15,171 nt of DNA from Candidatus Methylomirabilota bacterium (lineage in GTDB: Bacteria > Methylomirabilota > Methylomirabilia > Rokubacteriales > CSP1-6). Below the pieces are notes generated by a model, which was not told the origin of the DNA, made no database searches, and saw only the letters and a program-made list of their open reading frames with translations. Location: NCBI GenBank assembly GCA_046726415.1, contig JBKPAK010000184.1:1-15171 (forward strand), written 5' to 3'. Below, in pieces: positions 1 through 13,318 of this stretch. A program made the translations under genes and the position numbers. Numbering within the stretch: position 1 is the first letter of the stretch; each line of letters starts with the position of its first letter.

Positions 1-203
1 GTCACCGGCCCGGGGTGCCCGCCGACGCCAGTCGCGATCAGCACACGTGGACCGCCCCGCGCCCGAGTGCGCGCCTCGTCCCAGCGGGCGCGGTCCCGGG
101 TCACGATCGGCTTCCAGTCGGGGAAGGCGTAGGTGCGAGCCCTTACCCAGTTGGCCGCCAGCCGCAGCCGGACCGAGCGCTTGAGCAGCTCGCGAAGCGG
201 CAT
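1..203 (-). CDS. 5' fragment of a capsule-synthesis (KpsS/Capsule_synth-like) putative glycosyltransferase; runs off the left edge
   Basis: Not in the ORF track. ATG at 203-201 overlaps the HAD stop (TGATG). The frame is open to position 1: MPLRELLKRSVRLRLAANWVRARTYAFPDWKPIVTRDRARWDEARTRARGGPRVLIATGVGGHPGPV. The segment RVLIATGVGGH matches RVLIATSLGGY near the N-terminus of the 7119-8744 protein. Confidence 0.7.
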   Translation of the reverse strand, partial: MPLRELLKRSVRLRLAANWVRARTYAFPDWKPIVTRDRARWDEARTRARGGPRVLIATGVGGHPGPV

Positions 204-892
204 CAGGTGGCGCTTGCCATGAGCCGGTCGACGAACACCTCGGGCTCAGGGAGGGCGGGGAGCAGCCACCACGGCTCATGGCGCGCCAAGTCCTCGACTC
301 CGTATGAGCCCGAGGCCACGGCGACGGCGCGGGCGCCGATGGCCCGCGCGCAAGCGATGTCGTGCGGCGTGTCTCCGATCACGTACGTGCTCCGGGTCTC
401 CGGCTCTCGCCCCATCACCTCCCGGGCGACGGCCAGGGCCCGCCGCGCGACCGCACTGCGGTCGCGCGCGCCGTCCGCGAAGGCTCCACGCTCGAAGTAG
501 CCGTCGAGCCCGTAGTGGCGCAGCTTCGCCCACGCACCGGCCTCCGTGTTGCCGGTGAGCAGGATGGAGACCGCCCCGGGCTCCCCGCGGAGGTACTCGA
601 GGATGGCCTGCACCCCGGGAGCCACGCGTCCGGTGCGCCAGTGTAGTCGGTCCGGGAGCAGCGCCTCGTATCGCCGCACCAACGCGCCCACCGCCGACGA
701 CGTCTGCGCTCGGCCAAAACGGTCCAGGATCCGGGCGGCAATCTCCACGTCGGTGAGGCCGGCGGTGTCCAGGGACGAAAAGTCGACCGCCTGGTTCACG
801 AGCTCGTGGGTTGCGTCCTCCCACGCGAAGATGCCGGCCCGCGCGGTGGTCAGCAAAGTGCCGTCAATGTCCCAGCAGAGGACGAGCGTCAT
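203..892 (-). CDS. HAD-superfamily hydrolase (phosphatase), 229 aa; candidate ulosonate-phosphate phosphatase
   Basis: Motif I WDIDGTLL, motif II LTGN, conserved Lys (AWAKL), motif IV IGDTPHD. The start is set at ATG 892 (MTLVLCWDIDG), which overlaps the transketolase stop (ATGA). The ORF-track extension to 1165 lies inside the transketolase gene and is not credible. Confidence 0.9.
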   Translation of the reverse strand: MTLVLCWDIDGTLLTTARAGIFAWEDATHELVNQAVDFSSLDTAGLTDVEIAARILDRFGRAQTSSAVGALVRRYEALLPDRLHWRTGRVAPGVQAILEYLRGEPGAVSILLTGNTEAGAWAKLRHYGLDGYFERGAFADGARDRSAVARRALAVAREVMGREPETRSTYVIGDTPHDIACARAIGARAVAVASGSYGVEDLARHEPWWLLPALPEPEVFVDRLMASAT

Positions 893-2805
893 CGCTCGCC
901 CGCGAGCGCCCGGCGCACCTGCTCGACGATCCCCTCGGCGTCGAGACCGTGCGCGTTGAGGACCTCGGTGTTTCCCCCGCAGAGGGGAATCCGGGTCACG
1001 CCCAGTCGCCGCGCCCGTGGCAGAGGCCGCTCGGGCAGCTCGGCGAGGGCCGCCAGGATCATCTGCCCCTGCCCCCCGTGCAGGTAGTGGTTGTCGAGCG
1101 TGAAGAGCCATGAGTAACGCCCGGCGACTTCGGAAAGCCAGTCGGCGGCGACGCGATTCAGCCATGGAAGATCGATCACCGCTACGTCGAGTCCAGCCCG
1201 CCGGGCCAGCAGCTCAGCGGCCCGGAACGCCTGGGCGAGCAGGACTGGCCCGTACCCGATCATGGCGGCGTCGCGCCCTTCGCGCAGCACCACGCCCCGG
1301 CCGAGGCTCAACCGGTAATCGGCCGGGAGCTGGTAAGGGATCTCCGCGGGAATCGACACCAGGCGGATGTAGCACGAGGACGGGGCCGTGTTTACGCAGA
1401 AGTCGAGCGCCTCCTCCGCCTCGTCCTCGGTGCTCGGCTCGATCATGATCAGGTCCGGCACGCCGCCCAACGCCGAGATGTCTCGCACCGACTGATGGCT
1501 GTGGCCGGGGCCGGCGGGCAGGAGGCCCGCCAGCGAGGCGATGTAGACGACCTTCGCCCTCTCGGTGACGTTGTTGTAGATGTGCTCATTCGGACGCGTG
1601 GACAGAAAACACGCGAACGAGTGCACCAGGGGAAGCAGACCGCGTCGCGCCATACCGCCCGCCTGCGACACCATGTCCTGCTCGGCGATGCCGCATTCGA
1701 AGAAGCGGTCGGGGAACCGCTGGCGAAACGGAATCAAGCCGCAGTCGAGGACCAGGTCGGCGTCGAGCACCACCAGCCGAGGGTTGCGCTCGGCCTGGTG
1801 CAGGAGCGCGCGGGAGTAGGCGGTGACCAGTCGATGCACGCGTCCAGGGGTCGGAGCCTCTGGGCGAGGCTCCTGCTCGAGCCGGAGCTCGCCTCCTCCC
1901 GCCTCGCGCAGCCGCGCGCCGGCGGTGTCGATCAGCTCGGCGAGGGCCTTGGCGTACACCTCGGGGCCCGGCGCTCCACTGTGAAACCGGTACATGCGAT
2001 CGGTGGGGTCCATGGCCGCCGGCTCCATGAACGACACGCCCTTGCCCTTGATCGTATCGGCGATCAAAACTTTCGGTCGATCGGCAATCGCCCGCAGCCG
2101 GGAGAATGCCGCGGCCACCGCGCCCAGGTCGTTCCCGTCAGCGCGCTCCACGTGCCATCCGAAGGCCCCGAACTTCGCGGCAAGGTCACCGAGATCGCTC
2201 ACGTCGGCGATCCAGGTATCGGACTGGATCTTGTTGTGGTCGACGATCACGGTGATCTCGCCCAGCCCGAGCGTGGCCGCGGATGGCAGCGACTCCCAGA
2301 TCTGCCCCTCCTGCAACTCGCCGTCGCCGGTCATGACGTAGACGCGCGAGGGAGCGCCGAGGAGTCGGTTGGCGAGGGCCATTCCCTTGGCCTTGGAAAT
2401 ACCCATGCCGAGCGATCCAGTGTTGGCCTCCACGAAAGGTATCGACACGTCGGGATGGCCGGGCAGCCCGCCCAGGCGACGCAATCGGTGGATCAGCGCG
2501 AAGTCGAGCAACCCGAGCCCGGTGAGCACCGCATACAGCGCGGGGGCGTCGTGGCCTTTCGACGAGAAATAGAGGTCACCGGGGCCGCCCGGCTCCGTCG
2601 GGAGCCGCATTTCCTCGAGGAAGAGCCAGCTGACCAGGTCGATGGAACTGAACGAGGTTCCGATGTGGCCAGACCCCGCCCGCGCGATCATGTAGAGCGC
2701 GTTGATTCGACAGATGGCGGCGAAGGCCGTCGCCCGGCGCTCCGGCGTGGTGTCGAGGCGCCGGAGGCGGCTCAACTCGGAGCGCGGTACGTAGTGCAAA
2801 TCCAT
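889..2805 (-). CDS. tkt: Transketolase-family ThDP-dependent enzyme, single chain (N-terminal, pyrimidine-binding and C-terminal domains), 638 aa
   Basis: Motifs SGHIG, SKGH, LPGHP, TGSLGMG, the ThDP motif GDGELQEGQIWE...N, TIKGKG, GIAEQ and GHSHQ. A GAGGG SD-like sequence lies upstream of the ATG. Confidence 0.92.
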   Translation of the reverse strand: MDLHYVPRSELSRLRRLDTTPERRATAFAAICRINALYMIARAGSGHIGTSFSSIDLVSWLFLEEMRLPTEPGGPGDLYFSSKGHDAPALYAVLTGLGLLDFALIHRLRRLGGLPGHPDVSIPFVEANTGSLGMGISKAKGMALANRLLGAPSRVYVMTGDGELQEGQIWESLPSAATLGLGEITVIVDHNKIQSDTWIADVSDLGDLAAKFGAFGWHVERADGNDLGAVAAAFSRLRAIADRPKVLIADTIKGKGVSFMEPAAMDPTDRMYRFHSGAPGPEVYAKALAELIDTAGARLREAGGGELRLEQEPRPEAPTPGRVHRLVTAYSRALLHQAERNPRLVVLDADLVLDCGLIPFRQRFPDRFFECGIAEQDMVSQAGGMARRGLLPLVHSFACFLSTRPNEHIYNNVTERAKVVYIASLAGLLPAGPGHSHQSVRDISALGGVPDLIMIEPSTEDEAEEALDFCVNTAPSSCYIRLVSIPAEIPYQLPADYRLSLGRGVVLREGRDAAMIGYGPVLLAQAFRAAELLARRAGLDVAVIDLPWLNRVAADWLSEVAGRYSWLFTLDNHYLHGGQGQMILAALAELPERPLPRARRLGVTRIPLCGGNTEVLNAHGLDAEGIVEQVRRALAGER

Positions 2806-2841
2806 CGGCGACCCTCGGCGGGGGCGGGGCTCAGCGGTGGC

Positions 2842-3615
2842 TCAGTCGCCCGGGATCTCGATCGGCACCGGCGGCTGCGGCACGGGGAGAAGCCGGGCCT
2901 CGCCGCTCTGGAGCAGCTCCTCGACGTGGCGCCAGTCACGCGTGTCGTTGATGTCGAGGCCCTCGAGTCCCTGCGTGAAGAAGGGCATCAGCACGTGACC
3001 GGCGATGGTGCGTCCTCCGAAGACGACTCGCGCCCACGCGATCTCCAGGCTCGCGTTCTGCGCGTACACCTCGAACAGCGAGGCATACTGGCTACTGTGC
3101 CAGGGCTGCTCGGCGGGCCCCATGGGCAGGAGCGGCAGCATCCGGCGTTCGCGGATGATCCACATCTTCCCGGGATGCTGCCGGCACTTCTCCACCGCGC
3201 GGAGCGAGTCCACACCGCCTTCGGCCAGGAACTCGCGCCACGCGCGCTGGATGGTCTCCGGCGTTCGGAACGGGCTCGTGGGCCGCAGGATGCTGAAGCA
3301 GTCGTACCGGCGCCCCTCGTCGGCCAGCCGGTGGAGCGTGTACTCGAGCCACTCGATGTCGGGTGAGGTCTCGGTGGCGTACTCCGCCGGCCGAAGGAAC
3401 GGCACCTCCGCCCCGTAGTGTTTGGCGATGTCGGCGATGAGCGGCGAGTCCGTCGAGACCAGGACCGCATCGAAGACCGCGCTGGCCCGGGCGGCCGCGA
3501 TAGTGTAGGCAATGACGGGGTGCTCGCCGAGGCGCCGGATGTTCTTGTTCTTGACGCGCTTGGAGCCCGACCGGGCCGGGATCAACCCGATGATGCTGGG
3601 AGTGTCGCTCGACAT
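2842..3615 (-). CDS. neuA: Acylneuraminate/ulosonate cytidylyltransferase (CMP-NulO synthetase), 257 aa
   Basis: Motifs LIPARSGSKRVKNKNI, VSTDS, EVPFLRP, LRPTSPFR and the C-terminal LDINDTRDW. Sits in an operon with a NeuB-family gene. Confidence 0.92.
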   Translation of the reverse strand: MSSDTPSIIGLIPARSGSKRVKNKNIRRLGEHPVIAYTIAAARASAVFDAVLVSTDSPLIADIAKHYGAEVPFLRPAEYATETSPDIEWLEYTLHRLADEGRRYDCFSILRPTSPFRTPETIQRAWREFLAEGGVDSLRAVEKCRQHPGKMWIIRERRMLPLLPMGPAEQPWHSSQYASLFEVYAQNASLEIAWARVVFGGRTIAGHVLMPFFTQGLEGLDINDTRDWRHVEELLQSGEARLLPVPQPPVPIEIPGD

Positions 3616-3626
3616 TCGGATCAGCT

Positions 3627-4439
3627 CTACCAGACGGTGAAGCCGCCGTCCACCTTCAGGTTGATGCCGGTCACGTACCGCGCGGCCTCGGAGGCAAGGA
3701 AGACCAGGGGCCCGGCCAGATCAGCGGGCTCGGCCATGCGCCCCAGCGGCACGCGCGCGGCGTACTTGCGCTTGAACTCCTCGTCCTGGCCCCCCACCAC
3801 CCCGCCGGGAGAGAGGGCATTGACGCGGACTCCATACGGCCCCCACAGCGCCGCGAAGTACATGGTGAGGTTCACCACGGCCGCCTTGGAGGCGCCGTAG
3901 GCGGGCGGCTTGAGGAACGGCGGGTCGCTCGGCAAGTGGTCGTACAAGCGCTGATCGGGGGCGACCGCAGCGTAGAGCGACCCGATGTTGATGATCGAGC
4001 CTCGCCGGGCCGCCACCATGGCGGGGCCGAACGCCTGGATGCAGTGAAAGGCGCCGAGCACATTCACCTCGAAGACATCGCGAAAGAGCTCTGTCGGGAT
4101 GTCCTCTACTCGAGCGCTCCGGGGAAGCACGGTGGGCGGCTGGTCGATTCCCGCGTTGTTGAGCAGCACGGAGGGGCTCCAACCGTGCTGGCCACACTCC
4201 GTGCGCGCGTGGGTGAGCGACTCGCGATCGGTGACGTCGGCCCGCACCAGGCGCAGCCGCTCGTCGACATCGCGGTCGAGCAACCGCGCGAACGCGTCCG
4301 GGATCTTGGCCTCGGCGAGGTCGAGCCCCACGACCCTGGCCCCGGCGTCGAGGAGAGCCTCGACCCAGACCGGGCCGAGCCGCCCGAGGGCCCCGGTGAC
4401 CAGGGCGACCTCGCCCCCGAGATCCCCGCCGCCCTTCAC
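3627..4439 (-). CDS. Classical short-chain dehydrogenase/reductase (PtmA-like type often found in nonulosonate clusters), 270 aa
   Basis: Rossmann motif TGALGRLG, NNAG, NIGS, catalytic YGASK, RVNALSPGG and VTGINLKVDGG. The GTG start overlaps the neuB stop (GTGA). Confidence 0.9.
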   Translation of the reverse strand: MKGGGDLGGEVALVTGALGRLGPVWVEALLDAGARVVGLDLAEAKIPDAFARLLDRDVDERLRLVRADVTDRESLTHARTECGQHGWSPSVLLNNAGIDQPPTVLPRSARVEDIPTELFRDVFEVNVLGAFHCIQAFGPAMVAARRGSIINIGSLYAAVAPDQRLYDHLPSDPPFLKPPAYGASKAAVVNLTMYFAALWGPYGVRVNALSPGGVVGGQDEEFKRKYAARVPLGRMAEPADLAGPLVFLASEAARYVTGINLKVDGGFTVW

Positions 4440-5518
4440 GGGCGGCGGCCGAGCATATCGAGCTGGATGGCCTCGTCGGTGTCGAGATCCTTGCGGAGGG
4501 CGCGCCCGATGACGTCGTGAAGCTCGTAGGGCGCGAGGCCATCACCACCCGGCGACTTGATGCCCACGTCCTTCGGGGTGAGGATCTGGCCGGAGCGAAG
4601 GGGGCGCGCGGCCACCAGCCTCTTGCCCATCTTGGTGATCCCGGGGATCTCGCTAGGATAGACGCGCTTCGTCCCGTCGCCCAGGGCCACCCGGACCCGC
4701 GTGAGGTCCCGTACCGTCTTCCGTAGCCCCACGGGCTCGAGGGAGAAGGCGTGGTCCGTGCCTTTCATGGCCCGATTCAGGGTGAAGTGCTTCTCGATGA
4801 TCCGCGCGCCGAGCACGTAAGCCGCCACGGCCATGGCGATCCCGCTGTCATGGGCGGACAGCCCGATCACCACGTCGGGGAACAGCGCCCGATATGTCTC
4901 GATCACCCGGAGGTCGAGCTCCTCGAACGCCGCCGGATAGCTGGCCGTGCACTGCAGAATGGCGACCTGCCGGTTGAGCGGCCTCACGGCGTCGTAGGCC
5001 CGGCGGACGTCGTCCAAGGTGCCGCCCCCCGTGCTGATGATGATCGGCTTGCCCAGCCGCGCCACGTGCTCGATGAGGGGAATGTTCCGAAGATCGCCCG
5101 AGGCGATCTTGTAGGCCGGCATGTCGAGCCGGGCGAGGAAGTCGGCGCTGGGGATGTCGAAGGCGGTGGCGAAGAAGGTGATGCTCAGCTCGCGAGCGAA
5201 CCGTTGGAGCTCGGCGTATTCATCCTTGCCGAACTCCAGGAACTCCCGATGCTCGCCGTAGGTGCGGCCAAAGCTGTTCTCGTGGTCGTAGGGCCGGCCA
5301 TACATCTCACGGGTGAAGAGGGTCGGGTTGTCGCGCTTCTGGAGCTTGACCGCCGACGCTCCGGCCGCCTTGGCCTCGCGGAACAGCTGTCGGCACTTCT
5401 CCAGATCGCCCTGGTGGTTGTGCCCGATCTCGGCGATCACCCAGCAGGGAGACTCGTCAGAGATCACCTGCCCGTCGATCACAAGGGCGCGTTGCGCGGT
5501 CGCCTCGTAGTGTCCCAA
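4436..5518 (-). CDS. neuB: NeuB-family PEP-dependent nonulosonate(-9-phosphate) synthase with C-terminal SAF/antifreeze-like domain
   Basis: Motifs IAEIGHNHQGD, VKLQKR, YKIASGD, IISTG, LQCTASYP, GLSAH, IEKHFTL and TDHAFSLEP, plus a C-terminal SAF-like segment. The start is uncertain. TTG 5518 follows GGAGG and fits the predicted promoter; the ORF track uses TTG 5539. Confidence 0.93.
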   Translation of the reverse strand: MGHYEATAQRALVIDGQVISDESPCWVIAEIGHNHQGDLEKCRQLFREAKAAGASAVKLQKRDNPTLFTREMYGRPYDHENSFGRTYGEHREFLEFGKDEYAELQRFARELSITFFATAFDIPSADFLARLDMPAYKIASGDLRNIPLIEHVARLGKPIIISTGGGTLDDVRRAYDAVRPLNRQVAILQCTASYPAAFEELDLRVIETYRALFPDVVIGLSAHDSGIAMAVAAYVLGARIIEKHFTLNRAMKGTDHAFSLEPVGLRKTVRDLTRVRVALGDGTKRVYPSEIPGITKMGKRLVAARPLRSGQILTPKDVGIKSPGGDGLAPYELHDVIGRALRKDLDTDEAIQLDMLGRRP

Positions 5519-5552
5519 GATTCCTCCGCTTCGCGGCAATTGGTCCGCGCTG

Positions 5553-5582
5553 ATTATCTGGGTTCGGAAGTTTCAGTGTCAA
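5553..5582 (-). promoter_or_regulatory. Sigma70-type promoter for the neuB operon: TTGACA-N18-GATAAT
   Basis: Plus-strand tgtcaa (5577-5582) is a perfect -35 on the minus strand. Plus-strand attatc (5553-5558) reads GATAAT, a 5/6 match to the -10. The spacer is 18 bp and the site lies in an AT-richer intergenic region directly upstream of neuB. Confidence 0.7.
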
Positions 5583-5627
5583 GAATGGCGCACTCCTACG
5601 GATTCCCCTATTTTGGGTGGCCCGCTG

Positions 5628-5633
5628 TATAAT
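5628..5633 (+). promoter_or_regulatory. Candidate -10 element (TATAAT) for the rightward operon
   Basis: Perfect TATAAT in the divergent intergenic region of a very GC-rich window. No convincing -35 at 16-18 bp spacing. Confidence 0.45.
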
Positions 5634-5768
5634 ACCCACTCGCGGTGTTCTTTCGGTGATGTTCACTGAGCAAATCTACGACCGCTCGACGATACTCGTC
5701 GGGTCTGAGTGCCTGGGCGGAGCCGGTCGCTGGCGCGCGCGTCGAACCCGCCGCGCGGCGCTTCGCTG

Positions 5769-7025
5769 ATGGCTGGAACGGGGATCTCGCTCGGCCTGCC
5801 CATCCACAACGGGGCCCGGCACCTTCGCCAAGCCCTCGATTCCCTGCTCGCCCAATCCTACCGCGATTTCAACCTCGTCCTCTTGGATGACGGATCGGTC
5901 GACGGCTCCGACTCCATCGCCCAGGAATACGCCCGGCGCGACCCCCGGATCTGCTTTTTTCGGCATGGCGCGCGAATCGGCCTCGTCAACGCCTGGAAGC
6001 GCGTGGCAGACATCGCCGCGCGCTCCCATGCCCCGAGCTACTTCGCGTGGTTCTCCGATCACGACTGGGTCGCGCCCGACTGGCTGGAGCGACTCTCCGA
6101 GGCCCTGCAGGAGCAGCCGGATGCGGTGCTGGCTCACGCGCGGACGATTCACGTGGACGCCGACGGTTCCCCCACCGGGGCCGAGAGTTACGCCCTCGAC
6201 ACGGCCAAGATGGAGCCCTATGAGCAGCTGCGCGCCGTGAGCCTGGGGCCGTTTGGGGCGGGCGACGCCGTCTACGGTCTGTTCCGCTTCGACGCGCTCC
6301 GTCGGTGTGGGATCTTTCCACAAGAGATCCTTCCCGACCGGCTCCTGGTCTCCGAGCTCACGCTCTTCGGAACCGTTGCGCATGTGCCCGGCGCGGTGCG
6401 CTTCCGGCGCGTCTTCGCGGCCAGCGACTCCTCGGCCGACGTGATCCGACGCCAGCTCTCCACCTTGTTCGCTCCTTCCGACCAGCCGGTGCGACCGCAT
6501 CTCAGCCATGCGACCTATTTCATCCGCCGGCTCCTCCACGCGCCCGCGGACGAGCCGCCGCGGCGACGCATGCAGCGGCTCTATCATGCCCTGCTCTACT
6601 TCCAGCGCCAGTTCAACAAGTACCGACTCGAATGCGTGCGCGAGCTCGAGCGGCCTGAGCCGCTGGGCGAGATCGCCCCTCTCACCGATTTTCTGGGGGC
6701 GGTACTGGAACGGAAGTGGAAGTTCCTCTATCAGGACTACGCCGGCCTCCTGGAGAAAACGCGGAACGCCCGCGTACGGGTTCGCGAACTCAAGGCGCTG
6801 CGGGAGAGCTTGGAGGAGAAAATCGCGGAGCTCGAGGCCCGCAACGCCGAGGCCCAGGCCCGGAACGCCGAGGCCCAGGCTCGGAACGCCGAGGCCCAGG
6901 CTCGGAACGCCGAAGCCGAGGCTCGGAACGCCGAAGCCGAGGCCCGGATTGCGATGCTGAGCGAGGAGCTTCGCCATCCCGTCCGCCACCTGCTCAGGCG
7001 TGCGGCCAAGACCCTTCGGAGATGA
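5769..7025 (+). CDS. GT2-family glycosyltransferase with C-terminal heptad-repeat coiled coil
   Basis: GT-A N-terminus ISLGLPIHNGARHLRQALDSLLAQSYRDFNLVLLDDGSVDGS and a DxD-like WFSDHD. The C-terminus has (ARNAEAQ/E)x5 and a basic tail. ATG 5769 is preferred over GTG 5709 because the domain begins right after it. Confidence 0.88.
   Translation: MAGTGISLGLPIHNGARHLRQALDSLLAQSYRDFNLVLLDDGSVDGSDSIAQEYARRDPRICFFRHGARIGLVNAWKRVADIAARSHAPSYFAWFSDHDWVAPDWLERLSEALQEQPDAVLAHARTIHVDADGSPTGAESYALDTAKMEPYEQLRAVSLGPFGAGDAVYGLFRFDALRRCGIFPQEILPDRLLVSELTLFGTVAHVPGAVRFRRVFAASDSSADVIRRQLSTLFAPSDQPVRPHLSHATYFIRRLLHAPADEPPRRRMQRLYHALLYFQRQFNKYRLECVRELERPEPLGEIAPLTDFLGAVLERKWKFLYQDYAGLLEKTRNARVRVRELKALRESLEEKIAELEARNAEAQARNAEAQARNAEAQARNAEAEARNAEAEARIAMLSEELRHPVRHLLRRAAKTLRR
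6837..6947 (+). repeat. In-frame 21-bp tandem repeat, 5 copies plus 6 bp (GCYCGSAACGCCGARGCCSAG), encoding ARNAEAQ/ARNAEAE
   Basis: Units start at 6837, 6858, 6879, 6900 and 6921, with a partial unit at 6942. Units 4 and 5 are identical; units 1-3 differ only at third codon positions. Confidence 0.95.
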
Positions 7026-7118
7026 GACCTCCGATATCTCCGGCGGGCCCAGTATCCTTGACGCCATGACACTGACGCCCGCATGGTGTTGCGATTCGCC
7101 AGGCCCACGGTGGATGGC

Positions 7119-8744
7119 ATGATCTGGCCCTGGCGGCGGAACAGGCGAAATGGGCCCGCTCTGCACGCGGTGAACCCGCGCCAGGAGCGATCCCGGGTGC
7201 TCATCGCCACGAGCCTCGGTGGCTACGACCACGCCCAGGCGCTCGACGCCACCCTCGCCACGGCGCTCGGCCTTCGCGGAAGCGATGTCCGGGTATTACT
7301 CTGCGACGCCGTTCTGCCCGCGTGCCAGATGTCGAAGTCCCCGCGGGTCACCGCTGAGACGCTTGTCAGCATCGGTCAGACCGCCTATTGCGCCACCTGC
7401 TTCGGCCGGGGCTCCGAGCGGTTCCGCCGACTCCCCCTCGTGACCTACAGCCAGTTCCTCACCAGCGGCGATCGCGCGACCGCCGCGCGAATTGCCGACG
7501 AATTGCCCATGGATCAGATCCGCGGGTTCCGGTTCCGCGAGCTTGGGGTCGGCGAGCACGCGTACGCCGGAGCGCTGCGCTTCTTCGCGCGAGGCGATCT
7601 GGACGGCGAACCCCATGGCCAAGCAGTCCTCCGCCGGTACCTACACGCGGGCCTGCTGACCATCATGGCCCTGGACGGTTTGTTCGAGCAGCACTCCGTC
7701 GACGTGGTCGTGGCCCACCACGGGATCTACATCCCCCAGGGCATGATCGTGGAGGCGGCCCGCCGTCGCGGCATTCGCGTGGTCACCTGGAATCCTGCCT
7801 ACCGCAAGCACTCCTTCATCTTCAGCCACGACGACACCTACCATCACACGATGATGTCCGAGCCGACGCGGGTGTGGGAAGACCTGCCGCTGATCGACGA
7901 GATCCGACAGCACACCCTCCGATACCTGGACAGTCGCCGGGCGGGGACGAACGACTGGATCTGGTTCCACGACCAGCCACGCGAGGACGCACGCCGCGTG
8001 CTGACGGAGATCGGGGCCCACCCGGACCGGCCGTACCTGGCCCTCCTGACCAGCGTGGTCTGGGATGCCCAGCTGCACTACGCCTCCAACGCGTTCCCGA
8101 CGATGCTCGACTGGGTGCGCGAGACCATCCTGTACTTCCGGCGGCGACCCGACTTGCAGCTCGTCATCCGCGTGCACCCGGCCGAAGTGCGGGGGCTGGT
8201 CCCCTCGCGGCAACGCATCGCGGACGAGGTGGCTCGATGGTTCCCCCAGCTGCCGGCCAACGTGTTCGTGATCGGGCCCGAACACCAGGCCAGCACCTAT
8301 GCCTTGACCGATCACGCGAACGCCATCGCCATCTACAACACGAAGACGGGGGTCGAGGTCGCCGCCCAGGGGCGCCCGGTCATCGTGGCCGGCGAGGCTT
8401 GGATCCGAGGCAAGGGCTTCTCGCTCGACGTGTCGACCGCCGAGGACTACATCCAGGTACTCGACCGTCTGCCGTTCAGCGAGGGGATGTCGCCGACCCA
8501 GATCGATCGCGCTATCCGCTACGCGTACCACTTCTTCTTTCGCCGGATGATTCCCCTTCCCTTCATCGCCCAGCGCGGGCCGGCTTCCTTCACGGTCACC
8601 GCCACCGACACCCAGCTGCAACCCGGCACCTTCCGGGGCTTGGATGTGATCTGCGACGGCATCCTCACGGGCTCGCCGTTCGTGTACCCGTCGGAGTCCC
8701 TGGCGGACCCCCTGGCCGAACGACATGAGCAGGCCGTCTCGTAG
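7119..8744 (+). CDS. Capsule polysaccharide biosynthesis protein (KpsS/Capsule_synth-like GT-B fold; putative CMP-ulosonate transferase)
   Basis: C-terminal features typical of this group: VVWDAQL, LVIRVHPAE (HP motif) and IYNTKTGVEVAAQGRPVIVAGEAW. Located in a neuA/neuB locus. The start is either ATG 7119 (after GGTGGA) or ATG 7083. Confidence 0.75.
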   Translation: MIWPWRRNRRNGPALHAVNPRQERSRVLIATSLGGYDHAQALDATLATALGLRGSDVRVLLCDAVLPACQMSKSPRVTAETLVSIGQTAYCATCFGRGSERFRRLPLVTYSQFLTSGDRATAARIADELPMDQIRGFRFRELGVGEHAYAGALRFFARGDLDGEPHGQAVLRRYLHAGLLTIMALDGLFEQHSVDVVVAHHGIYIPQGMIVEAARRRGIRVVTWNPAYRKHSFIFSHDDTYHHTMMSEPTRVWEDLPLIDEIRQHTLRYLDSRRAGTNDWIWFHDQPREDARRVLTEIGAHPDRPYLALLTSVVWDAQLHYASNAFPTMLDWVRETILYFRRRPDLQLVIRVHPAEVRGLVPSRQRIADEVARWFPQLPANVFVIGPEHQASTYALTDHANAIAIYNTKTGVEVAAQGRPVIVAGEAWIRGKGFSLDVSTAEDYIQVLDRLPFSEGMSPTQIDRAIRYAYHFFFRRMIPLPFIAQRGPASFTVTATDTQLQPGTFRGLDVICDGILTGSPFVYPSESLADPLAERHEQAVS

Positions 8745-8865: not shown

Positions 8866-9378
8866 ATGGTACCCGACGCGACCCCCGACACGACGGGTGT
8901 CGTGCTGATCCTTCAGCCCGACGGCAAGGAGGAGAGCGAGGACTTGCCCATCATCCGCGATTGCCTGAGAGGGGTTGGCCTGCCTGCGGTCGAGAGTGCG
9001 GCCGCATCTCTCCCCGGAGTCGAATTCTCGGCGCTCCTGGTCCGGGGCGCGATCCCCGTCAGAGGTTATCTGAGCCCAGACGGATCGAGTCAGTTGGTCG
9101 ATCCCCGCGTCGCCGAGATCATTCGCGGCTTCTTCCACGCGGGCAAGCCCATCGCGGCGCCCTGTATGGGCCTGGCGGTGGTGATCGAATCCCTGTCGGA
9201 CCTGTTGCCGAGCTCGCTGATCCTCTCGCCTGAGCCGGCGCGGGGGGCCGTTGCCGTCTATCCCGCTCTCCGCCTGGTCACCACCAACCGCCCTCTTATC
9301 GGGCGCGCGCCCGGCGCGGTGTCGAGGACGCTGACTGAGCTCGTGCGCGAACTGCGGCGCCTGGTGGAGGCGTGCTGA
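8866..9378 (+). CDS. Divergent DJ-1/PfpI (class I glutamine amidotransferase-like fold) protein, 170 aa
   Basis: DGKEESE resembles the PfpI DxFExxE motif, EFSALLVRG resembles DYDALLIPGG, and FFHAGKPIAAPCMG resembles the GKPIAAICHG nucleophile elbow. GGGAG lies 9 nt before the ATG. Confidence 0.6.
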   Translation: MVPDATPDTTGVVLILQPDGKEESEDLPIIRDCLRGVGLPAVESAAASLPGVEFSALLVRGAIPVRGYLSPDGSSQLVDPRVAEIIRGFFHAGKPIAAPCMGLAVVIESLSDLLPSSLILSPEPARGAVAVYPALRLVTTNRPLIGRAPGAVSRTLTELVRELRRLVEAC

Positions 9379-9490: not shown

Positions 9491-11308
9491 ATGCCGACCT
9501 TCGGTGACTCGGGTGTGCTCGCCCTCGGCATCCACTGCATGCACGATGCCTCCGTGGCCGTGTGTACGCCCTCGGGGTGTGTCTTCGCCCTGGCCGAAGA
9601 GCGCGTGACGCGCATCAAGCACTACTATGGTTTCCCCATCGAAGCGCTTCGCACGGCATTCCGCGAGCTCGCCATCACCGGCGCGGATATCGATATCGTG
9701 GCCGTCTCCACGCACCAGCCGTTGTTCCCCTTTCAGCGAAACTACATCTCGGTCGAGCTGGACGGCAAGCCTTCCGGACCAGCGCTCCACGAGTTTTCGC
9801 GCTGGCGCCCCGGAGCCCGGAAGGTCGCCCCGGCCCCACCGCCCCCGCCCACCGCGGCCGCTTCCTTCGTGGGGACGGCCTGGGAGGGTTTCGAGTCTCG
9901 GCACTGGTCGCACTTTCATGGAGCCTTGAACGAGCTTGGTTTGTTCAGTCCGGGGATCCGCTATGTCTACGTCGCCCACCATCGGGCGCACGCGGCGAGC
10001 ACCTTCCGCCTGGCCGGCATGAGCGGCGAGACGGTCTGCGTGGTGACCATGGACGGCAAGGGCGACGGGCATAGCGGCACCATCTATCGGGGTCACGCGA
10101 ACGGCCGACTGGAGCTGATCCGCGCGATCCCCGCCCAGCACAGCCTCGGCTCGTTCTACCAGGCGATCACCGAGGTGCTCGGGTTCGTTCCGGTGGACGG
10201 CGAATACAAGACCATGGGCCTGGCCGCCCTGGGGAAACCCGGTTCGCCCAATCCCTTCGACGGGCTCGTCGAGGTCCAGGACGGCATGACCCGAAGCCGG
10301 CTGTCCTGGACGTTCCGGTCCTACAATGCCGTCTACCCGGCCAAACGGGTGCCCAACCCCCTGGGCTCAGTTGCCGAAACCGAGTCCTTCCGCGGCGATC
10401 TCGAGCGCCACGGACCCTCTCAGTTGGCGTACTTCGCCCAGGAGCACGTGGAGCGAAACGTGATCGCCTTGATGCGCGATGCGCTGAAGCTCACCGGCGC
10501 CCGTCGCCTCGCCGTGGCCGGCGGCGTGATGTTGAATGTCAAGGCCAACGGCCGAGTGCGGGACGAACTCGCGCCGTCGGACTACTTCGTCTTTCCCGAC
10601 TCGGCCGACTCCGGCCTCTCGATCGGCGCCGCCATGGAGGGCTTGTACCTCTGCGGGGTGGCCACCACGGCCTCGCTTCCCTCACCATACTTGGGACACC
10701 GCTATACCGATGAGCAGATCGCCACCACCCTGGCCGGGGCCGCCGATCTGGACGTCGACGACGAGGGAGACCGGCTGCCCTCGCGGGTGGCCAAGGAACT
10801 AGTACGGGGTCAGGTCATCGGAACCTTCCAGGACCGGCTGGAGGTCGGGCCACGCGCGCTCGGCAATCGGTCCGTGCTGGCCGATCCACGCGATCCCGCC
10901 ATCAGAGCGCGCATCAACGACATCCTGAAGGGGCGTGAGTGGTTCGTGCCGTTTGCCCCCGTCGTGCTGGAAGAGGAGGCGAAGAAGTACTGGTGTGGTC
11001 CGATCGACTATCGGTACATGACCTTCACGGTGGCGGCGTCCGATTTTGCGAAAGCCCGCGTGCCCGGGGTCGTTCACGTCGACGGGACCATGCGACCGCA
11101 GGTCGTGAATCGCTCCACCCACCCCTGGCTCCACGCGGTGCTGCAGTCGTTCCGCGCGCTGACTGAGGTGGGGGTGCTGATCAACACGTCGTTCAACCGC
11201 CACGGCCTGCCCATCGTCGGCGCGCCGGCCGACGCCATCGAGCATCTGCGTCAGAGGTGGGTGGACGGCCTCGCCATTGGCCGCTATTACGTCACCCGCA
11301 CGGCCTAG
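9491..11308 (+). CDS. O-carbamoyltransferase, NodU/CmcH/TobZ family, ~605 aa
   Basis: Motifs HDAS, EERVTRIKH, HHRAHAAS, DGKGD, EYKTMGLAA, GGVMLNVKANG, DSGLSIGAA, EVGPRALGNRS, KGREWFVPFAP, HVDGTMRPQ and NTSFN. An alternative GTG start exists at 9515. Confidence 0.93.
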   Translation: MPTFGDSGVLALGIHCMHDASVAVCTPSGCVFALAEERVTRIKHYYGFPIEALRTAFRELAITGADIDIVAVSTHQPLFPFQRNYISVELDGKPSGPALHEFSRWRPGARKVAPAPPPPPTAAASFVGTAWEGFESRHWSHFHGALNELGLFSPGIRYVYVAHHRAHAASTFRLAGMSGETVCVVTMDGKGDGHSGTIYRGHANGRLELIRAIPAQHSLGSFYQAITEVLGFVPVDGEYKTMGLAALGKPGSPNPFDGLVEVQDGMTRSRLSWTFRSYNAVYPAKRVPNPLGSVAETESFRGDLERHGPSQLAYFAQEHVERNVIALMRDALKLTGARRLAVAGGVMLNVKANGRVRDELAPSDYFVFPDSADSGLSIGAAMEGLYLCGVATTASLPSPYLGHRYTDEQIATTLAGAADLDVDDEGDRLPSRVAKELVRGQVIGTFQDRLEVGPRALGNRSVLADPRDPAIRARINDILKGREWFVPFAPVVLEEEAKKYWCGPIDYRYMTFTVAASDFAKARVPGVVHVDGTMRPQVVNRSTHPWLHAVLQSFRALTEVGVLINTSFNRHGLPIVGAPADAIEHLRQRWVDGLAIGRYYVTRTA

Positions 11309-11314
11309 CCCACG

Positions 11315-13318
11315 GTGGGATACATCCTCCACGTCGTTCCCGACAGCATCAACAATACGCGGAAGATCTTCATCGGCAGCACCAAGGACGTGCTGGGCCG
11401 TTCGGAATATTTTGACGCCCGTCCTCACTGCGTGCGCCAGTTCGTGAGCGTGGGCCGCTCCGATGATGAAGTCCTGGCCATGCTCGGCGACGCGGATCTG
11501 CGCGAGTGCCGCGCCGTGCTGTTCGAATACGAAATGTACGTCCGCAGCCTGGCCTTCCTCAAGCAGAACTACCCCAGAATCCGCCGCCTCGTTCGCGCCC
11601 ACAACGCCAATCTGCCGCACCTGGTCGATCAGTTCCACGGGAAGCTCAGGATGATCGAGGATCGCCGGGAGACGGACCTCGCTCGGGCGACCTCGGCAAT
11701 CCACCTCGCCCTCGCGCGCTTCCGGCTCGATGGCCAGTGCGCGGAGCTGGCCGATGCCATCCTGCCCATTTGCCATTGGGAGGCCGATCACTACTGGGGT
11801 CAGCTCACCGCGGCCGAGAAGGTCGTCACCGTCCCCTACTTCGTACCCCGGCCCTTTGTCGAGCAGATCCCGAGCAGACCCCGCCGGAACGTGTGCCTAT
11901 TCGCCATGGGGACGGGTTCGTCGATGGCGGCACTGCTGTACGACGCCGGGCGCAATGCGGTAGAGCTGGTCAACGCGCTCCCCGCTGACGTGGCCGCGGA
12001 GTGGGACTTTCAGATTACCGGCAACCTCAAGCCGCCCGACGTCCTGGGTGCGCTTGGCCGATTGAAGCCGACCGGCCTGGTCGCCTCACCGCTGCCCCTG
12101 CTGGCCGAGGCGCGCGCCGTCGCCATACCGTCCGACCTCGGCATGGGGTTCAAGACGAAGATCCTGGAGGCGATCCTCGCCGGCTGTTGGGTGCTGGTGA
12201 CCGAGGAGGTCCACGCGCGCCTGCCGGAGGCCGTCCGCCCGTGGTGCCTCCTGCTCGATTCTCGCTCTCCCGCGCGGTTCGCGGAGACCCTGCACCAGTG
12301 CGCCGGTCCACCGCCCTCCGGCGATCCGAACGCCCGGTTGCGCGACGAGGCATTTCGCGGATTGGATCGCGTCCTCGCGGTCGGCTCGCCGATATCGGCC
12401 GAATACATTGGTCCGCCGGTGACCCCGCGCTCAGAACCGCCTCGCGCCCCGGACGTGACGCCGACCGGCCGGCTATGGCCCGGCGGACCCGGGGCCGGTG
12501 AGGAACACCGCGCGTCTTCGCCTCTGCCGCCCAACGGAGACACCGCGAGGGTCGGTGCATTCGCGGCGCTGACGGCGATCGGCGCCTTCCGCCGAGTCGA
12601 GCCCAGCGTGTGGAGCGCTGATCGGGGAGCGGCGTCCTTCGGCGAAGGGCGAATCATCTACCACGCCTGTCTCAAGCCGGTGCTGGTCAGCAAGCGGCTG
12701 ATCGCGTCTTCGCCGGCGGTCTTCGAGTACGGGGTGGGCATGGGCCGGATCCTCAGAAGCCTGAGCGAGGATGGGCTCACCTGTGGCGGGGTCGACAGGT
12801 CTCCCGCCCTCCTCGACCATTGCCGGAGATTCGTCCCGCGAGCGAGCACCCTGGGGCTGATGGACGAATCCGGGACCTGTGACTTCCCGAGCGAATGGGC
12901 GGATTTCGCCTACTCGTTCTCGGCCATTCAGCACATCTCGAAGACGTCGAGGATCGACACGGCGATCTCGGAGATGGTCAGGGTATTGAGGCCGGGAGGG
13001 TACGTGAGGCTCCAGTTCCGTTCCGCATCCGGCCAGCGTCCCCACGCGCCCCTCCTCAAGCGCGAGCTGCTCTACAACCTGGAGGATCGCACGGTCGTCC
13101 TGCACCTGCGTCCGCTGCGGCCAGGCCAGCCGGCGCTCAGCCGCATTCGCCTCCCTTGGCTCGGCCTCCGGCAGCATAGCGAGCGAGAGGGCATCCCACT
13201 CTCGATCGGGCACCTGCTGCGCGTGTTGCGGAAGCACGGGGTGGAGCCGCTCAGCGTTGAACCCGACCGGCGCAAGAAGGGAGACCTGTTCTGGGTGACG
13301 GGGAAGAAGAGGCGATAA
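11315..13318 (+). CDS. Fusion of a GT-B (GT4-like) glycosyltransferase domain, Pro-rich linker and class I SAM-dependent methyltransferase, 667 aa
   Basis: GT4-like donor-binding segment AVAIPSDLGMGFKTKILEAILAG. The C-terminal MTase has motif I VFEYGVGMGRI, GVDRS, ADFAYSFSAIQHI and EMVRVLRPGG. The GTG start is 6 nt after the carbamoyltransferase stop. Confidence 0.75.
   Translation: MGYILHVVPDSINNTRKIFIGSTKDVLGRSEYFDARPHCVRQFVSVGRSDDEVLAMLGDADLRECRAVLFEYEMYVRSLAFLKQNYPRIRRLVRAHNANLPHLVDQFHGKLRMIEDRRETDLARATSAIHLALARFRLDGQCAELADAILPICHWEADHYWGQLTAAEKVVTVPYFVPRPFVEQIPSRPRRNVCLFAMGTGSSMAALLYDAGRNAVELVNALPADVAAEWDFQITGNLKPPDVLGALGRLKPTGLVASPLPLLAEARAVAIPSDLGMGFKTKILEAILAGCWVLVTEEVHARLPEAVRPWCLLLDSRSPARFAETLHQCAGPPPSGDPNARLRDEAFRGLDRVLAVGSPISAEYIGPPVTPRSEPPRAPDVTPTGRLWPGGPGAGEEHRASSPLPPNGDTARVGAFAALTAIGAFRRVEPSVWSADRGAASFGEGRIIYHACLKPVLVSKRLIASSPAVFEYGVGMGRILRSLSEDGLTCGGVDRSPALLDHCRRFVPRASTLGLMDESGTCDFPSEWADFAYSFSAIQHISKTSRIDTAISEMVRVLRPGGYVRLQFRSASGQRPHAPLLKRELLYNLEDRTVVLHLRPLRPGQPALSRIRLPWLGLRQHSEREGIPLSIGHLLRVLRKHGVEPLSVEPDRRKKGDLFWVTGKKRR

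Follow-up and report, generated by a model that had tools for sequence, protein, structure and literature searches.

In Bacteroides thetaiotaomicron, Kdn is reportedly made and activated by a Kdn-9-P synthase, a Kdn-9-P phosphatase and a CMP-Kdn synthetase, and in the Kdo8N pathway of Shewanella the terminal carbon of Kdo is reportedly oxidised by KdnB and then transaminated by KdnA. We compared with these systems an operon in a 15,171-nucleotide stretch of Candidatus Methylomirabilota DNA (contig JBKPAK010000184.1; this whole stretch is called the window, Table 1). The host is a soil bacterium. Gene calls and profile searches place neuB, an SDR gene, a neuA-like gene, a transketolase (TK) gene and a HAD gene at the annotated positions, all on the minus strand. 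In the literature searched, no published description of this gene set was found and no characterised pathway matched it, in agreement with the initial annotation. We suggest, with a probability somewhat short of even, that the operon makes a Kdn-like ulosonate that is oxidised by the SDR, shortened by two carbons by the TK, CMP-activated by NeuA and attached by KpsC-like enzymes.

Reading of the junction letters shows that neuB and the SDR gene overlap by GTGA (4439-4436), TK and HAD by ATGA (892-889), and that the HAD stop and the start of the next gene share TGATG (205-201); 11 nt separate the SDR stop from the neuA start, and 36 nt the neuA stop from the TK start. The five-gene operon first described, with its order and overlaps, is thus confirmed in the sequence, and the neuB end of 5518 given there corresponds to the alternative TTG start. 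The transferase it placed downstream is a real gene; however, it is not the listed ORF 1-279, which was rejected, but is read from the ATG at 203, in a frame free of stop codons as far as the window start. This frame continues on contig C273, which joins the window through an exact 141-nt overlap, and the completed Capsule_synth (Caps, PF05159) protein has about 566 aa; the C273 part is a 533-aa ORF that matches PF05159 and shares 50% identity with the other Caps protein of the window. An 86% identical orthologue also follows HAD in a genome of the same genus (G002). The right end joins contig C277, which bears a GT2, an ABC-2 permease, an ABC ATPase and a methyltransferase. Both joins are based on 141-nt overlaps, and synteny with G002 corroborates the left one only.

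Table 1. Features of the window and their positions
Feature	Position	Strand	Details
Capsule_synth (KpsC/KpsS-like) transferase, second copy, 5' end only	1..203	-	starts at ATG 203-201; rest on contig C273
HAD-superfamily phosphatase, proposed ulosonate-phosphate phosphatase	203..892	-	229 aa; HAD, HAD_2, Hydrolase_like
Remodelled short-type transketolase-family ThDP enzyme	889..2805	-	638 aa; Transketolase_N, Transket_pyr, Transketolase_C
NeuA-like CMP-ulosonate synthetase, CTP_transf_3 cytidylyltransferase	2842..3615	-	257 aa; PF02348 75.5 bits
Classical SDR, proposed oxidant of sugar side chain	3627..4439	-	270 aa; adh_short, adh_short_C2
NeuB-family PEP-condensing ulosonate synthase	4436..5539	-	TTG 5539 gives 367 aa; TTG 5518, preceded by GGAGGA, is the likely start
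Divergent intergenic region between neuB (-) and GT2 gene (+)	5540..5708	.	GC dip
Family-2 glycosyltransferase, C-terminal 7-residue repeat tail	5709..7025	+	PF00535 84 bits
KpsC/KpsS-like ulosonate transferase (predicted)	7083..8744	+	553 aa; PF05159 34.7 bits
170-aa protein	8866..9378	+	no Pfam/NCBIfam match; 65% identical orthologue at matching G002 position
NodU/CmcH-type O-carbamoyltransferase	9491..11308	+	Carbam_trans_N, Carbam_trans_C; G002 orthologue 81% identical
GT1-like domain fused to SAM methyltransferase	11315..13318	+	Glyco_trans_1_4, Methyltransf_11; G002 orthologue 68% identical
Surface-carbohydrate biosynthesis protein (TIGR04396 / BFO_1060-like)	13377..15171, continues on C277	+	TIGR04396 76.9 bits, NF046086 44.7 bits, both below cut-off

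The operon belongs to a widespread, unnamed cassette of neuB, (phosphatase), SDR, ALDH, neuA, TK, (HAD) and a KpsC-like transferase. In a pattern search of species-representative genomes, relatives of the TK are encoded at at least 572 of the 600 matches listed, and in metagenomes at 569 of 597 pattern matches. We kept 160 loci; 80 of them are informative, with flanks of at least 4.5 kb on the upstream side of the TK and at least 2 kb on its downstream side. Among these 80, the TK is accompanied by an SDR in 66, neuA in 65, neuB in 63, an ALDH in 61 and Caps in 32; SDR, ALDH, neuB and neuA are all present in 49, neuB, SDR and TK occur without ALDH in 11, ALDH and TK without SDR in 6, and none of the four partners lies within 8 kb of the TK in 6. 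Linkage of the TK is not universal, yet it is far beyond chance, and the same order is found in many phyla, so that the predicted conservation of the neighbourhood holds.

The full cassettes of Vicinamibacterales and Gemmatimonadales (neuB-SDR-ALDH-neuA-TK-HAD-Caps; e.g. loci L014 and L026) have the gene order of the window and show 64% identity with it in neuB, 59-66% in SDR, 61-66% in neuA, 62-64% in TK, 51-52% in HAD and 49% in Caps. Unlike the window, they carry an ALDH (about 490 aa) that separates SDR from neuA, for which the 11-nt gap in the window leaves no space; a carbamoyltransferase and a further Caps paralogue are additions of the window genus. The ALDH-less order in G002 is identical to that in the window, and in the tree of TKs the Rokubacteria clade without ALDH is nested among ALDH-containing loci. 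These suggest that the window operon is an ALDH-less derivative of the wider cassette, which, like the usual presence of an ALDH, was out of sight in the initial annotation. All its genes are under purifying selection though the ALDH is gone (window versus G002, dN/dS 0.10-0.21, 0.113 for TK; dS 0.5-0.8). No cassette-type ALDH was found elsewhere in the host genome (98% complete); the nearest homologues there share 31-40% identity and lie outside the cassette clade. Cassette ALDHs, of whose 52 ORFs 44 were used, group in a clade of their own with support 0.95, and their top NCBIfam models, with scores below cut-off, are 2,5-dioxovalerate and alpha-ketoglutarate-semialdehyde dehydrogenases, enzymes that act on 2-keto-3-deoxy-acid semialdehydes.

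With three canonical domains and a match to a TK model at 1e-110, the window TK might be taken for an ordinary housekeeping enzyme that lies beside sugar genes by chance. However, this has next to no probability: the enzyme falls below every curated TK cut-off (369.7 bits for NF004559, cut-off 488), two canonical TKs lie on other contigs (TIGR00232, 813.8 bits, cut-off 682.25; NF004559, 849.7 bits, cut-off 488), and the window type is found in only 3 of 60 relatives. The linkage across phyla and a remodelled pocket also argue against it. The housekeeping reading is refuted, and the view that the TK is a dedicated one stands.

The best PDB match is human TKT (4kxu), and the host's own C249 transketolase is a short human-type enzyme of the same comparison class. 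The window TK has the three-domain fold and length of human TKT (4KXU/3MOS, EC 2.2.1.1), as well as its GDG...N ThDP/Mg motif, activating Glu and catalytic histidines. Residues were counted in the window enzyme and those TKs from genome loci with ORFs of 560-760 aa (70 of 80; n = 71). H85, Asn191, H275, Glu375 and H437 are retained in 71 of 71, H117 in 70, and H47 and the GDG Asp in 69. PMC8016368 lists Arg318, Ser345, His416, Asp424 and Arg474 as first shell of the X5P-ThDP adduct in human TK. All five are present in both canonical TKs of the host, whereas the family (human TKT numbering) has Ser345 replaced by Asp in 70/71, His416 by Leu in 69/71, Asp424 by Pro in 71/71 and Arg474 by Ser or Asn in 70/71, with Arg at position 318 in none of the five members displayed; the window TK reads Val/Asp/Leu/Pro/Ser and, unlike human TKT, bears an eight-residue insertion ahead of the His258 equivalent. 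We take four of these residues to line the phosphate end of the human substrate pocket and the Asp to sit beside them, their roles in phosphate binding and C2-OH recognition being assigned partly from general knowledge. ThDP-binding and catalytic residues are thus retained, and the sugar-phosphate pocket replaced, throughout the family. Because the phosphate pocket is lost, the usual sugar-phosphate pools are probably not substrates.

The window NeuB (PF03102, 252 bits, with a SAF domain) is 60-69% identical to NeuB of cassette loci and stays under the cut-offs of NeuB_NnaB (282 vs 399.65) and PseI (222.5 vs 340.25); its best relatives among solved structures are SpsE (1vli) and NeuB (1xuu). 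The SDR, 55-71% identical to cassette SDRs, is nearest to NCBIfam models of sugar and sugar-acid dehydrogenases (glucose 1-DH, mannonate oxidoreductase, gluconate 5-DH and KduD, all below cut-off), and its PDB relatives are 6uh2, galactitol DH (2wdz) and gluconate 5-DH (1vl8). The NeuA-like protein has a divergent C-terminal half, its PF02348 match covering just profile positions 1-112 of 217; it scores 122.6 bits against PseF (cut-off 205.7) and has NeuA and CMP-Neu5Ac synthetases as PDB relatives. The HAD protein shows just weak, generic phosphoglycolate-phosphatase-like NCBIfam matches (PDB relative 2hcf). In several cassette loci a KdsC-like phosphatase directly follows neuB; HAD (31 loci) and KdsC-like phosphatases (30 loci) co-occur in none of the 160 loci.

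As first noted, precursor genes are missing: no NeuC, PseB/C or LegB/C-type gene was found in the window or on the overlapping contigs C273 and C277, and a profile search of the host genome gave no NeuC or PseB above cut-off. This absence, together with neuB, SDR and TK being the minimal conserved triad, would fit a role of TK and SDR in making an unusual unphosphorylated aldose for NeuB, leading to a ulosonate of non-standard length or stereochemistry. Such a role is unlikely. The lost phosphate pocket excludes the usual sugar-phosphate pools, an ALDH acting before NeuB would destroy the aldose, and the KdsC-like or HAD phosphatase of 61 of the 160 loci implies a phosphorylated NeuB product and hence an ordinary sugar-phosphate substrate. 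Moreover, one sub-clade has a true NeuC (TIGR03568, 330.6 bits, cut-off 235.9) adjoining SDR, TK and ALDH; since NeuC already supplies ManNAc there, TK is likely to act after NeuB. The option in the initial annotation that has the TK making an aldose phosphate for use by NeuB is not supported as put, in view of this sub-clade and of the family-wide loss of the phosphate-end residues and adjacent Asp.

We therefore favor editing of the finished acid, with every chemical step proposed from family membership and gene linkage. NeuB would use PEP and a common sugar phosphate (mannose-6-P, for example) as condensation partners, which would account for the lack of precursor genes, and HAD would strip the phosphate to give a Kdn-like nine-carbon acid. 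The NAD-type SDR may then oxidise the next-to-last side-chain hydroxyl to a ketone, creating a HOCH2-CO-CHOH tail, the transketolase donor motif, from which the remodelled TK would cleave a two-carbon ketol and leave a C7 aldehyde. In most cassettes the dedicated ALDH would next form a heptulosaric (two-acid) sugar; with its gene gone in the window genus, the end may be an aldehyde or its hydrate, be re-reduced or be handled in trans. NeuA would activate the product with CMP, two KpsC/KpsS-like transferases would attach it to a carbamoyl-/methyl-decorated glycan, and the ABC transporter would export it. If so, the surface sugar is sialic-acid-like with a tail edited by a remodelled transketolase, here without the usual aldehyde-oxidising enzyme. 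Two points weigh on this proposal. A transketolase needs an aldehyde that accepts its C2 unit, and loss of the phosphate pocket leaves none to be named, which counts against trimming. Furthermore, the absence of ALDH, the enzyme that makes sense of trimming, in the window and G002 despite purifying selection means either that the aldehyde has another fate or that the model is incomplete.

The other early option, oxidation of the ulosonate followed by C2 addition, has the right order, SDR then TK on a finished sugar; the addition itself fits less well. Here, after SDR oxidation, the TK would add a two-carbon ketol (e.g. from hydroxypyruvate) to a carbonyl of the sugar, and the acid would become branched or longer (C10-C11). 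The retained ThDP residues and ketol-transfer histidines make addition as feasible as removal, the window has no ALDH to use up an aldehyde, and loss of the Asp beside the acceptor in canonical TKs could mean a new acceptor. However, an SDR normally yields a ketone and, to our knowledge, transketolases add to aldehydes, not ketones; the ALDH in 61 of the 80 informative loci better fits removal, which makes an aldehyde, than addition, which uses one up; and the window TK is 57-64% identical to, and nested among, TKs of ALDH loci, so a different chemistry is improbable. We give addition only a small probability. Still smaller is that of one-carbon trimming, in which the SDR (with ALDH if there) would produce a 2-oxo-acid tail and the TK-family enzyme would remove CO2. 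TK-family enzymes can decarboxylate 2-oxo acids (TK on hydroxypyruvate, DXS on pyruvate), the window TK also matches the DXS model TIGR00204 (151 bits, below cut-off), and no C2 acceptor would be required; however, the near-fixed donor C1-hydroxyl histidines H47 and H275 point to a hydroxymethyl ketol donor, and an ALDH that is dispensable in the window lineage cannot be the maker of the oxo-acid.

Downstream of activation, transfer, decoration and export are proposed for further genes of the window and of C277. The AlphaFold model of the complete Caps protein (pLDDT 86.7) has KpsC beta-Kdo transferases as top Foldseek matches (6mgb, 8fux, 6mgc and 8fuw; TMt 0.51-0.55) and WbbB 5fa1 at TMt 0.50, and no solved structure was matched at the sequence level. 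At 41 of the 160 loci a Caps orthologue comes after TK or HAD, whereas none of the 160 has the carbamoyltransferase. The GT2 gene contains 5.4 copies of a 21-bp unit (6835-6948), and in G002 it is reduced to a 38-aa remnant.

The transfer step of the locus thus recalls the KpsC/KpsS and WbbB beta-Kdo systems in PF05159, fold match and a nearby ABC-2 permease and ATPase. It differs in TM-scores of just 0.50-0.55 on target length and in a donor that is presumably not Kdo; a separate KdsB is encoded on contig C109. Similarly, the Kdn route of B. thetaiotaomicron combines NeuB-family PEP condensation without amino-sugar precursor genes, a phosphatase and CMP activation, as proposed for the window, and the KdsC-type phosphatase after neuB in sister loci scores 95.7 bits with the Kdn-9-P phosphatase model NF058599, under its cut-off of 180. 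However, the window operon has, in addition, an SDR and a remodelled TK, the wider cassette usually an ALDH too, and the window phosphatase is a capped PGP-like HAD rather than a KdsC type. In the Kdo8N pathway, it is likewise a finished ulosonic acid whose tail is edited by an oxidoreductase prior to CMP activation, but by an iron-type alcohol dehydrogenase and an aminotransferase, families other than those of the window operon, and without the carbon-carbon bond cleavage that we propose for the TK.

The source genome is a 7.6-Mb metagenome-assembled genome (98% complete), and the window spans one whole contig of 15,171 bp. Its minus strand carries neuB, a short-chain dehydrogenase (SDR), a neuA-like gene, a three-domain transketolase (TK) and a HAD hydrolase gene (see table). 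The initial annotation had described stop/start overlaps of GTGA at neuB/SDR, ATGA at TK/HAD and TGATG between HAD and a following transferase gene, and all three are found when every junction is read. SDR and neuA are separated by 11 nt, neuA and TK by 36 nt. The transferase is also real: a reading frame that begins with the ATG at 203 is open up to the contig end and, by way of 141 nt shared exactly with contig C273 of the same genome, carries on there, encoding a KpsC/KpsS-like (Capsule_synth, hereafter Caps) protein of ~566 aa, whose orthologue in the same-genus genome G002 is 86% identical and at the same position. Because the Caps gene joins after HAD via TGATG and the C273 overlap, the operon consists of six genes. 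ORF 1-279(-), tried as the downstream gene, was rejected as a wrong-frame shadow of the true gene.

Features of the window and of the repeat in its GT2 gene
Feature	Position	Strand	Remark
HAD hydrolase	203-892	-	
Three-domain transketolase	889-2805	-	
NeuA-like cytidylyltransferase	2842-3615	-	
Classical SDR	3627-4439	-	
neuB	4436-5539	-	likely start TTG at 5518, GGAGGA ahead
GT2	5709-7025	+	
Repeat in GT2 gene	6835-6948		21-bp unit x5.4, 94% match; encodes (EARNAEAQ)-like heptad tail at C-terminus
Second KpsC/KpsS-like protein		+	
170-aa protein	8866-9378	+	between Caps gene and carbamoyltransferase
Carbamoyltransferase		+	NodU/CmcH-type
GT1-methyltransferase fusion		+	
TIGR04396-type surface-carbohydrate protein		+	

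The 170-aa ORF matches no Pfam or NCBIfam family; it is 65% identical at the same place in G002 and is thus a real gene. Between neuB and the Caps gene of G002, just a 38-aa remnant of GT2 was detected. Each end of the window overlaps another contig of the genome (C273 on the left and C277 on the right) by exactly 141 nt, which is probably the k-mer length used in assembly, so that the locus extends past the window on both sides. C277 bears genes for a GT2, an ABC-2 permease, an ABC ATPase, a methyltransferase (CmcI-like O-methyltransferase) and a PLP decarboxylase. Past the Caps paralogue, C273 bears genes for a luciferase-like monooxygenase, an aminotransferase and a solute importer; these were set aside as precursor or aldehyde-handling genes and are not counted in the locus, because none is conserved downstream in G002.

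Relatives of the window TK with 55-68% identity occur in Acidobacteriota, Gemmatimonadota, Proteobacteria, Cyanobacteria, Actinomycetota, Chloroflexota, Verrucomicrobiota, Planctomycetota, Myxococcota and Patescibacteria. Species-representative genomes hold at least 572 TK relatives (572 of 600 among the pattern matches listed), and metagenomes gave TK relatives in 569 of 597 pattern matches. We retained 160 loci, 80 from the genome collection and 80 from metagenomes. ORF clustering on the first 80 loci and tblastn over all 160 recovered one recurring order: neuB, (KdsC-like phosphatase), SDR, aldehyde dehydrogenase (ALDH), neuA, TK, (HAD), KpsC-like transferase. Partners within 8 kb were counted in the 80 of the 160 loci with at least 4.5 kb upstream and at least 2 kb downstream of TK. 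The initial annotation had proposed a search for conserved neuB, SDR, neuA, TK and HAD neighbourhoods, and the linkage is strongly conserved: SDR lies near TK in 66 of the 80 loci, neuA in 65 and neuB in 63; ALDH is near TK in 61 and a KpsC-like gene in 32. SDR, ALDH, neuB and neuA are all present in 49 loci, neuB and SDR occur without ALDH in 11, ALDH occurs without SDR in 6, and 6 loci show none of these four partners.

In the TK tree the window enzyme falls inside the cassette clade, and orthologues of its neighbours are 55-71% identical and arranged in the same gene order. The best TK match retained from metagenome contigs is 65% identical, and closer relatives came from the related-genome search, in which a cassette-type TK was found in 3 of 60 genomes (G002 at 84%, the same-genus G001 at 72% over a partial match, and G059, a further Rokubacteria, at 69%). 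A fourth match among the 60 genomes (41% identity) is probably an ordinary TK. The cassette is therefore patchy among relatives. An actinomycete Kdn teichulosonic-acid cluster, suggested by the high GC, was dropped as a reading, since the nearest named TK relatives point to Rokubacteria. Two cultured actinomycetes carry neuB-SDR-TK without neuA and without ALDH, namely a Streptomyces sp. (L087, 2619-13425) and Actinokineospora enzanensis DSM 44649 (L069, 6063-9884). The Streptomyces triad is accompanied by a glyoxalase-fold dioxygenase, an FMN-dependent dehydrogenase, two aminotransferases, an RmlD-like reductase and a HAD protein, and the locus looks like a natural-product cluster rather than a surface-glycan locus. 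At five loci from Actinomycetota and Verrucomicrobiota (L059, L060, L064, L066 and L068), a ~476-aa Sulfotransfer_3 protein lies, in several of them, between ALDH/neuA and TK, a hint that the sugar may have sulfated forms.

The window TK shows all three transketolase domains above cut-off (PF00456 116.9, PF02779 80.7 and PF02780 56.5 bits) and scores under the curated NCBIfam cut-offs (NF004559 369.7 vs 488; NF004556 248.3 vs 575; TIGR00232 127.3 vs 682.25). A separate housekeeping enzyme had been named as a point to check, and the genome holds two canonical TKs, a long bacterial one on contig C74 (TIGR00232 813.8 vs 682.25) and a short human-type one on C249 (NF004559 849.7 vs 488); the window TK is not the housekeeping enzyme. 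We aligned human TKT (PDB 4kxu) with the window enzyme and with the 70 genome-locus relatives (of 80) whose ORFs are 560-760 aa long (n = 71 without human TKT). The ThDP/Mg motif GDG...N (D161, N191), the cofactor-activating E375 and the catalytic histidines are all present in the window TK, and they are conserved across the 71 sequences (H47 in 69, H85 in 71, H117 in 70, the GDG Asp in 69, Asn191 in 71, H275 in 71, Glu375 in 71 and H437 in 71). The substrate pocket is remodelled: human Ser345 is replaced by Asp (window D354; 70/71), His416 by Leu (L425; 69/71), Asp424 by Pro (P433; 71/71) and Arg474 by Ser or Asn (S484; 70/71), and none of the five family members displayed has Arg at the position of Arg318, where the window enzyme has Val/Thr (LVT-AYS vs TREAYG in the C249 enzyme). 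Canonical residues at all five positions are intact in both other TKs of the genome. We take four of the replaced positions (Arg318, Ser345, His416 and Arg474) to hold the phosphate and Asp424 to read the C2 hydroxyl. PMC8016368 lists the same five residues as the first shell of human TK that surrounds its xylulose-5-P-ThDP adduct. In a FastTree of the aligned enzymes, rooted on that of C249, the cassette TKs group together as a single clade with a long branch at its base.

The absence of precursor genes from the window, as first annotated, holds and can be extended, as Pfam and NCBIfam profiles detect no NeuC-, PseB/C- or LegB/C-type gene on any of three contigs, the window and its neighbours C273 and C277. 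Genome-wide, neither NeuC nor PseB is found above cut-off: the best NeuC score (80.9 vs 235.9) belongs to the sole Epimerase_2 gene, a non-hydrolysing WecB (324 bits), and the best PseB score is 46.6 vs 407.75. The window NeuB and NeuA belong to their families by Pfam (PF03102 and PF02348) and lie below the equivalog cut-offs (NeuB_NnaB 282.2 vs 399.65; PseI 222.5 vs 340.25; PseF 122.6 vs 205.7). The other CTP_transf_3 gene of the genome is KdsB. Contig C212 has one further NeuB-family match at 17665-18765, which is very weak (PF03102, 41.8 bits) and has no NCBIfam match. NeuB relatives 49-67% identical to that of the window are in many loci directly followed by a KdsC-like phosphatase, whose matches to the models for KdsC and for Kdn-9-P phosphatase fall short of the cut-offs. 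This gene occurs in 30 of the 160 loci and a HAD of the window type, itself with generic HAD matches, in 31, and the two are together in none, the pattern that alternative enzymes for a single step would give. The phosphatase after neuB and this mutual exclusion suggest that NeuB may take a common sugar phosphate, for which mannose-6-P, the substrate in the Kdn-9-phosphate route, is a candidate.

It had been proposed that TK and SDR supply an unusual aldose precursor to the synthase. Five loci from Acidobacteriota and Vicinamibacterales (L076, L081, L083, L084 and L089) form a sub-clade with the order SDR-TK-ALDH-NeuC-neuA, in which NeuC is of the true hydrolysing type (TIGR03568 330.6 vs 235.9). 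Since a true NeuC stands there beside SDR, TK and ALDH, TK is not there for precursor supply; the proposal is not supported in the form given, and we consider it unlikely for the cassette. In this sub-clade the same editing module seems to be paired with a Neu5Ac-like backbone that derives from ManNAc.

The window lacks the cassette ALDH between SDR and neuA, where there are just 11 nt. A tblastn search of the genome found three homologues 26-40% identical to cassette ALDHs, all outside the cassette ALDH clade (support 0.95, from 44 of 52 cassette ORFs after length filtering). G002 has the same ALDH-less order, and shares the divergent KpsC-like, 170-aa, carbamoyltransferase and GT1-methyltransferase genes; in G001 SDR is directly followed by neuA without ALDH. 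Between the window genome and G002 (dS 0.5-0.8), dN/dS is 0.10 for neuB, 0.11 for TK, 0.12 for neuA, 0.14 for SDR, 0.15 for Caps, 0.16 for the carbamoyltransferase and 0.21 for HAD, and every gene compared is under purifying selection. The missing ALDH is therefore no artefact of assembly. The window, G002 and a further Rokubacteria locus without ALDH (L012) have TKs that branch, in the TK tree, among those of HAD-Caps loci from Vicinamibacterales and Gemmatimonadales that do contain ALDH, so the loss of ALDH is derived. In G001 (72% complete; L182, 3449-6170), neuA is in two overlapping pieces and TK residues 222-458 alone are matched, with a TGA inside, which could reflect operon decay or assembly indel errors. 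At the ALDH-less locus of G059 (L183, 9592-13456, minus strand), TK lies on the strand opposite neuB-SDR-neuA, has one TGA in its frame and follows a gene for an asparagine-synthase-like amidotransferase (PF00733, 356 bits).

For the cassette as a whole we tentatively propose a C2-trimming pathway with chemical steps drawn from the gene set, a reading of which we are slightly more doubtful than confident. NeuB and a phosphatase would make a Kdn-like acid. The nearest models of the SDR are sugar-acid dehydrogenases (e.g. gluconate 5-dehydrogenase and KduD), and an Asp after its second strand (VVGLDL) presumably indicates NAD+ by SDR rules; the enzyme would oxidise the penultimate hydroxyl and give a ketol tail. 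TK, with the histidines of ketol chemistry and no phosphate pocket, could then cut off a C2 unit and leave an aldehyde, which ALDH, in loci having one, would convert into a second carboxylate. The best models of the cassette ALDH, below cut-off, are 2,5-dioxovalerate and alpha-ketoglutarate-semialdehyde dehydrogenases, which act on 2-keto-3-deoxy-acid semialdehydes. NeuA would activate the product, and the KpsC-like enzymes may transfer it, as suggested by PF05159 in the window Caps (34.7 bits, cut-off 20) and by its predicted fold. PDB sequence searches with the two putative transferases gave no match for either; an AlphaFold model made for the first of them (pLDDT 86.7) has its best Foldseek matches in KpsC (6mgb, 8fux, 6mgc and 8fuw) and WbbB (5fa1) at TMt 0.50-0.55, with other GT-B folds at 0.38 or below. 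The lineage-specific carbamoyltransferase, found in 0 of 160 other cassette loci, might decorate the product end.

Two points speak against trimming: no acceptor for the C2 unit can be named, and the ALDH step is missing in the window itself. In a C2-addition reading, the ulosonate would be oxidised and TK would add a C2 branch, which we hold to be improbable, and a one-carbon decarboxylative trimming appears more improbable still. If trimming does occur, the missing ALDH step means that the end group of the window product could be an aldehyde or its hydrate, a re-reduced alcohol, or an acid made by an unrelated enzyme. It is possible, if rather doubtful as a joint reading, that the remodelled TK is a side-chain-cleaving enzyme of nucleotide-sugar biosynthesis, that the common cassette leads to a Dha-like 3-deoxy-heptulosaric acid, and that ALDH loss in Rokubacteria re-routed it to a new C7 ulosonic acid with an aldehyde or re-reduced alcohol tail, possibly O-carbamoylated.

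CMP-activated ulosonic acids (Kdo, sialic, legionaminic and pseudaminic acids, and Kdn) are major determinants of microbial surfaces, and we know of no ThDP enzyme in any established CMP-ulosonic acid route. The initial annotation had recognised no characterised pathway with this gene set, and the open-access literature and bioRxiv likewise yielded none. In the main texts searched there, the SDR-TK(-ALDH) module has no counterpart, no paper was found to connect NulO or Kdn gene sets with a transketolase, and side-chain cleavage in nucleotide-sugar biosynthesis is not reported as a role of the transketolase family; in the matching portions of PMC12342839, transketolase and nonulosonic both occur in unrelated sections. 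Heptulosaric acid (Dha) appears, among the matches listed, in plant and algal cell-wall work only. Passages of a 2025 review (PMC12168206) count among the unknowns the enzymes that make it in plants and call its nucleotide form undefined, and passages of PMC3355719 do likewise. The cassette, spread over hundreds of species in many phyla, is a candidate route to heptulosaric acids, among them Dha, whose biosynthesis plant cell-wall research still lists as unknown, and would define a new tailoring logic in which a tail is oxidised, a carbon-carbon bond cut and the end re-oxidised. What the window adds is the ALDH-less state under selection, a natural experiment in which a lineage has lost ALDH while purifying selection acts on every other gene; this sets the SDR and TK steps apart from the ALDH step, and ALDH-containing and ALDH-less operons offer two directly comparable sets for reconstitution.

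The overall frame of the locus resembles Kdn-type CMP-ulosonate pathways combined with KpsC/WbbB-type transfer and ABC export. Unlike the Neu5Ac, legionaminic and pseudaminic acid pathways, the window operon has no hydrolysing NeuC and no PseB/LegB dehydratase, and its synthase and cytidylyltransferase do not score as equivalogs of theirs. With canonical transketolase (EC 2.2.1.1) the window TK shares the three domains, the ThDP motif and the histidines, whereas it differs in the sugar-phosphate pocket and the equivalog score. The window Caps resembles the KpsC/KpsS/WbbB beta-Kdo-type transferases in its Capsule_synth domain and, by the predicted model, in a KpsC-like GT-B fold. Compared with the unnamed neuB-SDR-ALDH-neuA-TK cassette of other genomes, the window has a TK of the remodelled clade and orthologous neuB, SDR and neuA, but lacks the cassette ALDH.
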